Of a stretch of DNA of 524 bases, positions 1 to 524 are shown one piece after another. The DNA lies in the NCBI RefSeq assembly GCF_003334385.1, contig NZ_QOWN01000171.1; one strand, written 5' to 3'. The translations under genes and the position numbers were made by a program. The first letter of the stretch is position 1. Each line of letters begins with the position of its first letter. The DNA comes from Escherichia coli. GTDB taxonomy: Bacteria; Pseudomonadota; Gammaproteobacteria; Enterobacterales; Enterobacteriaceae. The notes beneath the pieces are model-generated. The model was not told the DNA's origin. It did no database searches and saw only the letters and a list, made by a program, of their open reading frames with translations.

Positions 1-1
1 T

Positions 2-25
2 CCGCGATCACTGCGGGATTTTTTT
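2..25 (+). terminator. Putative intrinsic-terminator-like element: short GC hairpin followed by a T7 tract, oriented for plus-strand (antisense/convergent) transcription. Truncated by the window edge, so highly tentative.
   Basis: Plus strand 2..16 is ccgcg-atcac-tgcgg: pairs 2-16, 3-15, 4-14, 5-13 are Watson-Crick and 6-12 is a G-U wobble, with a 5-nt loop. It is followed by 'ga' and then ttttttt (19..25). The stem is short and may extend past the window. On the minus strand the same region reads A-run then hairpin, which is not terminator polarity for the gpI-like transcript. Confidence 0.25.
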
Positions 26-32
26 ATTCTTT

Positions 33-524
33 TTACCCCTGCCGCCCGATAACCACGACCTTTCCGCCCCCGCCTTCATCACGGGTACTGATGTCCTGGG
101 ATATACGGCGGGAGCCAACCAGCATTTCCCCGTAAGGCACCGGCATCGGGTTACCCTGGGCAATCATGTTGTCCAGTGACGAAAAATACGTGTTCTGTCT
201 GCCGTTATCCGTTGCGCGGTAATCCGGTGTTTTTGCCTTCGGGGCCAGCATCTGGGCCACACCACCCAGAATCATGCTGGCTCCAAGTGAAAACAGCATC
301 GTGGTGGCAGAAAAACCACCGGCTGCCAGGGCTGAACCCCATAACGCCATCGAGGCACCGGCAGTGAGGAAAGAGCCCACGATGGCTGCCGCCCCCAGCA
401 CAATCTGCAGTCCACCCTTTCCGGCCCCGGCCAGTCGCGGCACAATGTGGATGACCGTTCCCTCACCCAGCTGTTCGTGAAGACGGGCGTACACCGCCTC
501 CGGTGCCGTGTCATCACCGGCAAT
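33..524 (-). CDS. Tail tip assembly protein I, phage lambda gpI family; partial, with the N-terminal part beyond the window edge at 524. TAA stop at 33..35.
   Basis: The 153-aa ORF on the minus strand (33..494) reads ...GTVIHIVPRLAGAGKGGLQIVLGAAAIVGSFLTAGA...LFSLGASMILGGVAQMLAPKAKTP...DNGRQNTYFSSLDNMIAQGN...YGEMLVGSR...DEGGGGKVVVIGRQG. This is collinear with, and closely similar to, the C-terminal roughly two-thirds of lambda tail assembly protein I as I recall it (...GAVIHIVPRVAGAKSGG.FQIVLGAAAIAGSF...LFSLGASMVLGGVAQMLAPKARTP...DNGKQNTYFSSLDNMVAQGN...YGEMRVGSR...VVVIGR). I translated codons 495..524 by hand: the frame stays open (...IAGDDTAPEA-V-YARLHEQL), and the 'M' at 492..494 is a GTG (plus-strand cac), so the true start is upstream of the window. 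The stop at 33..35 (plus tta = TAA on minus) was checked by hand. Confidence 0.9.
   Translation of the reverse strand: MAGDDTAPEAVYARLHEQLGEGTVIHIVPRLAGAGKGGLQIVLGAAAIVGSFLTAGASMALWGSALAAGGFSATTMLFSLGASMILGGVAQMLAPKAKTPDYRATDNGRQNTYFSSLDNMIAQGNPMPVPYGEMLVGSRRISQDISTRDEGGGGKVVVIGRQG

Follow-up and report, generated by a model that had tools for sequence, protein, structure and literature searches.

A terminator-like hairpin after a lambdoid prophage tail gene is very probably the 3' end of the Hfq-dependent sRNA gene pasB

The question raised by this locus is why a hairpin and a run of seven T residues lie directly behind the stop codon of a prophage tail gene, with the polarity of the opposite strand. 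The window, meaning the entire 524-nucleotide stretch of Escherichia coli DNA analyzed here, contains a minus-strand open reading frame (33..494, with its TAA at 33..35, in the ORF list), and the gpI-type product matches PHROG 32 (phrog_32, "tail assembly protein") with an E value of 7.7e-55. In phages and E. coli prophages, DNA that is 96% to 99% identical to the window carries the annotation "tail assembly protein" or "tail tip assembly protein I." The original prediction, made from the window alone, placed a hairpin at 2..16 and a T7 tract at 19..25. It read them as an intrinsic terminator of plus-strand transcripts that enter from the left and are antisense to the tail operon, perhaps at the edge of an inserted, convergently transcribed gene (a moron), or else as a structured element of the I-J intergenic region. 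We conclude with high confidence that positions 1-25 are the 3' end of the sRNA gene pasB, which lies in the I-J gap of a lambdoid prophage and is convergent with I. The element is already known: it is the published PasB terminator, and the additions made here are a corrected stem and a set of diverged relatives at the same site. The features of the window and of the surrounding gap are collected in Table 1.

Table 1 Features of the pasB 3' end in the window, and of a second hairpin in related loci
Feature	Position	Strand	Description
PasB terminator loop	1..10	+	Last 10 nt of the 11-nt loop CUCCGCGAUCA; the first C of the loop lies just left of the window
Inner alternative 5' arm	1..6	+	UCCGCG; pairable with 12..17 (UGCGGG) across a 5-nt loop
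3' arm of the PasB terminator stem	11..17	+	CUGCGGG; its partner CCCGCAG is outside the window
A and U7 tract	18..25	+	Published PasB 3' end at position 25; presumed Hfq proximal-face tail
Spacer	26..32		A/T spacer of 7 nt that separates the PasB 3' end from the gpI stop codon; varies, including a 2-nt indel
Stop codon	33..35	-	TAA that ends the gpI-type tail assembly gene, also the end of the annotated CDS in L001, L002, and L004
gpI-type gene	36..524	-	163 codons for the C-terminal part of a lambda gpI-type tail tip assembly protein; the rest of the gene lies beyond the right edge
Second tail-strand hairpin	L004 1931..1954	+	
Second tail-strand hairpin	L002 4833..4856	-	
Second tail-strand hairpin	L007 and L008 349..372	-	
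Second tail-strand hairpin	Lambda (L005) ~765..790		

The abrupt change in base composition behind the tail gene is confirmed by measurement. GC content is 60.7% at 36..524, where about 58% had been roughly estimated, and 5.6% at 18..35, and the lowest GC content of any 18-nt segment within the coding part is 33%. The description of all 32 bp after the TAA as AT-rich is correct for 18..35, which is almost pure A/T, but not for 1..17, the GC-rich loop and arm, in which 12 of 17 residues are G or C (37% GC for 1..35 as a whole). The T7 tract is present as described and is the sole T run of at least six in the window. A pattern scan reports one terminator-like site, on the plus strand, made up of a stem at 1..17 and then ATTTTTTTAT. 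Folded by itself, this in-window stem has an energy of -7.1 kcal/mol (z = -2.29), and 6 of 200 shuffles fold as well; the same scan is expected to return 0.6 sites per shuffled window. On the evidence of the window by itself, the terminator exceeds chance only slightly. That expectation is what would recommend a functionless chance hairpin beside the A/T-rich context of a stop codon, but the site matches the 3' end of a Northern-validated sRNA exactly, and the hairpin arms and the T run are invariant across classes that are 73% to 81% identical overall, so that a chance origin is hardly credible. The site is accepted here as a real terminator because of this homology, not because of the statistics of the window.

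The sequence to the left of the window was read in relatives, of which the best match (L001) is 99.0% identical to the window. The start codon of J lies 344 nt beyond the stop codon of I in L001 and in the PPompW prophage (L003), and 240 nt beyond it in phage PhiR5_1 (L002) and in EPEC E2348/69 (L004), the gap being ~100 bp longer in the first pair than in the second. In lambda, the I-J gap is 60 bp and contains neither pasB nor a plus-strand promoter or plus-strand terminator. The short, lambda-type spacer that had been considered for this locus is therefore not what the relatives have, and because J starts 240 to 344 nt away the region is not the ribosome-binding spacer of J. J is not adjacent; a plus-strand gene abuts the window instead, and the hairpin is stable in this context. 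A scan found a sigma-70 promoter on the strand of the hairpin (TTCACA-16-TATAAT, 11 of 12 consensus positions), ~80 nt upstream of the stem, in L001, L002, and L004, and the same promoter is given for L003. Promoter and terminator bound a transcription unit of ~100 nt that contains no ORF, and no conserved ORF was found on either strand of the I-J gap in the variants compared. The palindrome folds on both strands, with -7.1 kcal/mol on the plus strand and -6.1 kcal/mol on the tail-operon strand, where it is followed by GCTGCGGGGACAGAC and has no U-tract. Because only the plus strand has a U-tract, the element is oriented as a plus-strand terminator, which upholds the original assignment and speaks against a structured I-J element of the tail mRNA.

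The plus-strand gene corresponds to a known sRNA. PasB is an 83-nt Hfq-dependent sRNA of EPEC E2348/69 that was identified by RIL-seq and Northern blot (Pearl Mizrahi et al. 2021, Sci Adv, PMC8550237), and its distribution has been studied by Zhu, Shabalina and Storz (2026, bioRxiv 10.64898/2026.05.13.724894). It is located on the minus strand of NC_011601.1 at 1466343 to 1466261 (83 nt), in prophage PP6 between E2348C_1436 and E2348C_1437 with the orientation "(> <) >", and was detected with the Northern probe AATCCCGCAGTGATCGCGGAGCT (Table S6, PMC8550237). Window positions 1-20 are the exact reverse complement of nucleotides 1-20 of this probe, and the remaining 3 nt of the probe match the bases left of the window edge in the 99%-identical L001. 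In the alignment, positions 1-27 are identical to E2348/69 at the PasB 3' end, 25 of the 83 PasB nucleotides being comparable. The E2348/69 record has the end of the I-type gene at 1466255 and the start of gpJ at 1466496, and when the published coordinates are mapped, the PasB end at 1466261 is the last T of T7, that is, window position 25. The PasB RIL-seq read ends examined span 1466260-1466305, in agreement with this 3' end (PMC8550237). The RNA 3' end expected at the T run of a plus-strand terminator is thus the published PasB 3' end of E2348/69.

The window holds the last 25 nt of PasB; the body, the 5' arm of the stem, and the promoter were read from relatives that are at most 99% identical, and the body and promoter region are present in every close relative examined. 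At least 80% of the PasB region is found in 1,791 genomes and at least 80% of the window in 1,837, and the left flank of the window is taken to be PasB because the PasB region is also present in nearly all genomes that have the window. The locus resembles PasB of E2348/69 PP6 in the sequence of window 1-27, in the T7 tract, and in its convergent position directly after a gpI-type gene. It differs in the spacer to the stop codon (ATGTT in E2348/69, ATTCTTT here) and in the gpI gene, which is ~94% to 99% identical, but not identical, to that of the window. Searches of Rfam 15 returned chance-level matches only (E <= 1 for the extended locus and E <= 10 for the window), and no matching sequence strings were found in the supplements of the EHEC Hfq-CRAC study (PMC4104026).

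The 5' end of the RNA is less simply placed. The published 5' end is 22 nt downstream of the perfect -10 hexamer TATAAT (L004 1844 versus 1866..1871; L001 4943 versus 4916..4921). This distance is too long for a start from that promoter, which leaves three explanations: processing of the RNA, an approximate 5' end (taken from coverage), or a wrong promoter call. The positions suggest processing of a primary transcript of ~98 nt or an imprecise published 5' end. With a start at the usual distance, the RNA would be ~15 nt longer, and in the 98-nt fold this extension, GCUGCGUUAGUGUUUUUUU, can form pairs with the CA-rich region.

Although the terminator is real, the hairpin that was reported at 2..16 is probably not its functional stem: it folds and is found by the scan, but its 5' arm is not conserved. 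In folds of the full-length RNA (83 or 98 nt, from E2348/69 or L001), the minimum free energy (MFE) structure pairs CUGCGGG at window 11..17 with CCCGCAG, which sits 2-8 nt left of window position 1 (L001 4993..4999). Window 1..10 then falls inside an 11-nt loop, and the same outer stem is found in the centroid. This stem, half of which is outside the window, has 7 bp, 6 of them G-C, and an energy of -12.2 kcal/mol, which makes it ~5 kcal/mol more stable than the in-window stem. The comparison was extended to an alignment of 20 variants over the promoter-to-stop region, comprising classes that are ~99%, 91%, 80%, and 73% to 76% identical to L001. The outer stem has -10.5 to -14.5 kcal/mol in all 20 variants; when its arm is forbidden, the best structure has 0 to -8.1 kcal/mol across the 20, with ST866 (L016) and several Stx-phage variants reaching only -2.2 to -3.6 kcal/mol. 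The outer arms are kept in 20 of 20 with one deviation (G to A at the loop-proximal base in L014), and the 5' arm is invariant despite the variable sequence around it. The segment between the arms varies in sequence and in length (2-16 nt), and in L014 the inner arm is deleted and a clean outer hairpin remains. A T run of 6-10 nt (U6-U10) is present in all 20 variants.

These data bear on the rival reading that the in-window helix (1-6/12-17) is the functional terminator stem and CCCGCAG a part of the unpaired sRNA body. Besides its energy, its z score, and its appearance in the pattern scan, this helix retains pairable bases in 89.6% of the aligned cells, compared with 99.3% for the outer stem. 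It can be formed in 12 of the 20 variants. It is, however, 4-10 kcal/mol weaker than the outer stem in each variant, while the outer stem is both MFE and centroid, and its 5' arm is mismatched at the center in 7 of 20 variants, is weak in the Stx-phage classes, and is lost in L014, all of which makes it quite unlikely as the functional stem. Compensatory changes are absent from both stems, the outer one being invariant and the inner one having one-sided changes only. The outer stem is therefore chosen because of the energies and the loop variation, covariation giving no discrimination. According to these folds, the 2..16 stem is probably largely an artefact of the window edge, and may exist as a minor conformer in the PasB class.

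In Hfq-dependent sRNAs, the terminator hairpin and U-tail have two roles, ending transcription and anchoring the RNA to the proximal face of Hfq. In the scheme proposed for this locus, RNA polymerase would start at the near-consensus sigma-70 promoter seen in the relatives, ~80 nt upstream of the stem, and produce a transcript of ~83-98 nt that would be stopped at the intrinsic terminator, as judged from the structure and, for the 3' end, from the published data. The predicted terminator consists of the 7-bp CCCGCAG/CUGCGGG stem, the 11-nt loop (mostly window 1-10), and A plus U7 (18-25), and the RNA would end 7 nt short of the gpI stop codon. By analogy with Hfq-dependent sRNAs in general, the hairpin and U-tail would also be the Hfq-binding module. 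On the tail strand no U residues follow the palindrome, so late transcription into J should continue.

A band of the predicted size is seen on the Northern blot of E2348/69. PasB abundance falls when hfq is deleted, with log2 fold changes of -6.8 (activating conditions) and -2.4 (non-activating conditions); the non-activating conditions give the higher expression, and the longest U tract is 7 (PMC8550237). By RIL-seq, PasB has 37 distinct partners, given as 30 CDS/5'UTR, 4 3'UTR/IGR, and 0 sRNA, and in 100% and 98.7% of chimeric fragments it takes the second position (PMC8550237). These traits are hallmarks of a canonical trans-acting, Hfq-dependent sRNA. A mutational or in vitro test of PasB termination was not found in PMC8550237 or in 10.64898/2026.05.13.724894.

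The location of pasB inside the late operon, on the opposite strand and fully complementary to the I-J intercistronic mRNA, raises the possibility of an action in cis on the tail-operon transcript. Besides or instead of regulating in trans, PasB might pair with the I-J late mRNA and influence its processing, its stability, or the translation of J, or the hairpin might itself be a structure of that mRNA. The folding of the palindrome on the tail strand and the retention of the position across diverged classes are compatible with such a role. PasB is, however, detected in lysogens, in which the late genes are silent, and has its 37 partners in trans. The tail-strand hairpin is without a U-tract and lies 240-344 nt from the ribosome-binding site of J, and lambda builds its tails without the element. 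Together these observations make a cis action unlikely.

A second possibility is that the I-J gap codes for a small protein, either from a plus-strand moron or from a tail-strand ORF like MKINVKELFLLLGQKNTNAAKL, the one annotated in phage PhiR12_4, and that the hairpin is the terminator or flank of that gene. An ATG-initiated tail-strand ORF of 22-32 aa (MKIN...) is indeed present in about half of the variants, and one such ORF, opposite pasB, is annotated as a "hypothetical protein" of 32 aa in phage PhiR12_4 (L006 403..501, minus strand). Other variants lose the ORF, shift its frame, or change its C-terminus, while the nucleotides TTAATCTTC stay invariant; the indels are not multiples of three, the variants have no plus-strand ORF in common, and the product that has been detected is an 83-nt RNA. 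A small protein is thus very improbable here, and judged from the sequences the PhiR12_4 annotation is probably a spurious gene call. The suggestion that the window touches an inserted convergent gene was correct as to the gene, which is pasB, but not as to a protein-coding moron, for which a conserved ORF is absent. We return in the following to pasB as an sRNA gene and to its relation to known systems.

Work by Otaka, Ishikawa and Aiba on SgrS reportedly provides an example of a Rho-independent terminator that serves as an Hfq-binding 3' module. PasB resembles the canonical enterobacterial module in its GC-rich stem, its 3' U7, and the U-rich UCAUUUGUCUGU just before the stem, as well as in its Hfq-dependent abundance and its position as RNA2 in RIL-seq chimeras. 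Its 11-nt loop, however, is longer than is typical of canonical terminators, and the arm inside the loop can form a competing 6-bp helix. Like the anti-sRNAs AgvB and AsxR of EHEC, PasB is a short, Hfq-bound RNA encoded by a prophage, and its 3' terminator is conserved while its 5' region varies more. AgvB and AsxR are 51-60 nt long and are located downstream of PR' at the moron site (Tree et al. 2014, PMC4104026), whereas PasB is in the tail operon, is 83 nt long, has no match to their Rfam models, and has 0 sRNA partners. In lambda, the I-J region has the same flanking genes in the same order, and both there and here a tail-strand hairpin with a T-run lies shortly before the ribosome-binding site of J; the lambda gap of 60 bp is, however, ~180-280 bp shorter than the pasB loci.

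Two other identities were considered and rejected. AgvB was the first idea, from the CA-rich AACAAAAACAAC, but it belongs to the PR' moron site, measures 51-60 nt, and gave no Rfam match. The CA-rich 5' stretch of PasB is also what prompted the idea of a GcvB mimic. As a GcvB sponge, PasB does not stand out: RNAduplex pairing of PasB with E2348/69 GcvB is no better than that of dinucleotide shuffles, which did as well or better in 264 of 300 cases for the 83-nt RNA, 255 of 300 for the 98-nt RNA, and 356 of 500 for the 50-nt body (a crude comparison that ignores accessibility), and the RIL-seq partners include 0 sRNAs.

Matches to the window are widespread, occurring in 1,922 complete E. coli genome records and 151 phage records. 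The promoter-to-terminator region is matched in 1,796 of 5,426 complete E. coli genomes and in 128 phage records; the E. coli genomes carry the pasB-like region at 4,452 places, with up to 9 per genome, and it adjoins the tail assembly gene in all loci examined. The preprint reports 24 phage and 1,158 bacterial matches for PasB under stricter filters (bioRxiv 10.64898/2026.05.13.724894). Many Stx1, Stx2, and other lambdoid phages (L002, L007-L012, and L015-L019) have, at the I-J position, elements that share only 73% to 81% identity with PasB. These diverged classes have invariant terminator arms, an invariant UUAAUCUUC core, and an invariant upstream box, TTCACATTTT, together with class-specific 5' regions and loops. 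The upstream box is just upstream of and overlapping the -35 hexamer (alignment columns ~8-17; L001 ~4886..4895). Within the sRNA body, TTAATCTTC forms an invariant block amid variable surroundings (columns ~104-112; L001 ~4982..4990), and its conservation marks it as a candidate seed or Hfq site. A consensus promoter was absent in the two Stx-phage classes scanned, so that expression of these classes is uncertain.

It is conceivable, though in our view rather doubtful, that the I-J element constitutes a modular sRNA family whose breadth exceeds what the published PasB counts imply, an idea drawn from the comparison of the diverged classes. If this were true and the classes were expressed, the prophages within one cell would furnish sRNAs that share an Hfq module but differ in their targeting regions. 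All of these RNAs would be antisense to the late I-J mRNA, and might therefore also act in cis on tail gene expression. Two remnant contexts were noted among the variants. In E. coli C7 (L020 360..512), the sRNA body and terminator persist beside sodC and the promoter region is replaced, and in Stx2a_1447 (L012 1..284), an IS66 transposase is found in place of J upstream of the element.

The proper label for this site is the 3' end and terminator of the sRNA gene pasB, not an element of the tail operon or a protein-coding moron, and beyond correct annotation the distinction matters little. In RefSeq/PGAP and phage records the I-J gap is unannotated or, in one case, carries a spurious small ORF. 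Because the gap is unannotated and Rfam 15 has no model for it, automated scans will keep flagging the site. Because the loop contains a decoy arm, a window that cuts through the terminator can show a plausible but wrong hairpin. PasB occurs in a third of complete E. coli genomes, and its seed could reasonably be sought in the invariant UUAAUCUUC core.

The I-J gap contains further palindromes. In the extra DNA at L001 4791..4822, which is the same in L003, a 14-bp perfect hairpin, GAAACCCCGGTATCAGCAGATACCGGGGTTTT, is flanked by A/T and looks bidirectional; it is upstream of the pasB promoter. A second hairpin is present on the tail-operon strand shortly before the ribosome-binding site of J in every locus, for example ACAGGCATCCTCCGGGGTGCCTGT then TGTTTTTGTG (Table 1). 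Located between pasB and J, it resembles a terminator within the late operon. Its variants display an apparent compensatory change (GCAT..ATGC versus GCAC..GTGC), and the analogue in lambda is AAACCGCCTGCGGGCGGTTTTGT.
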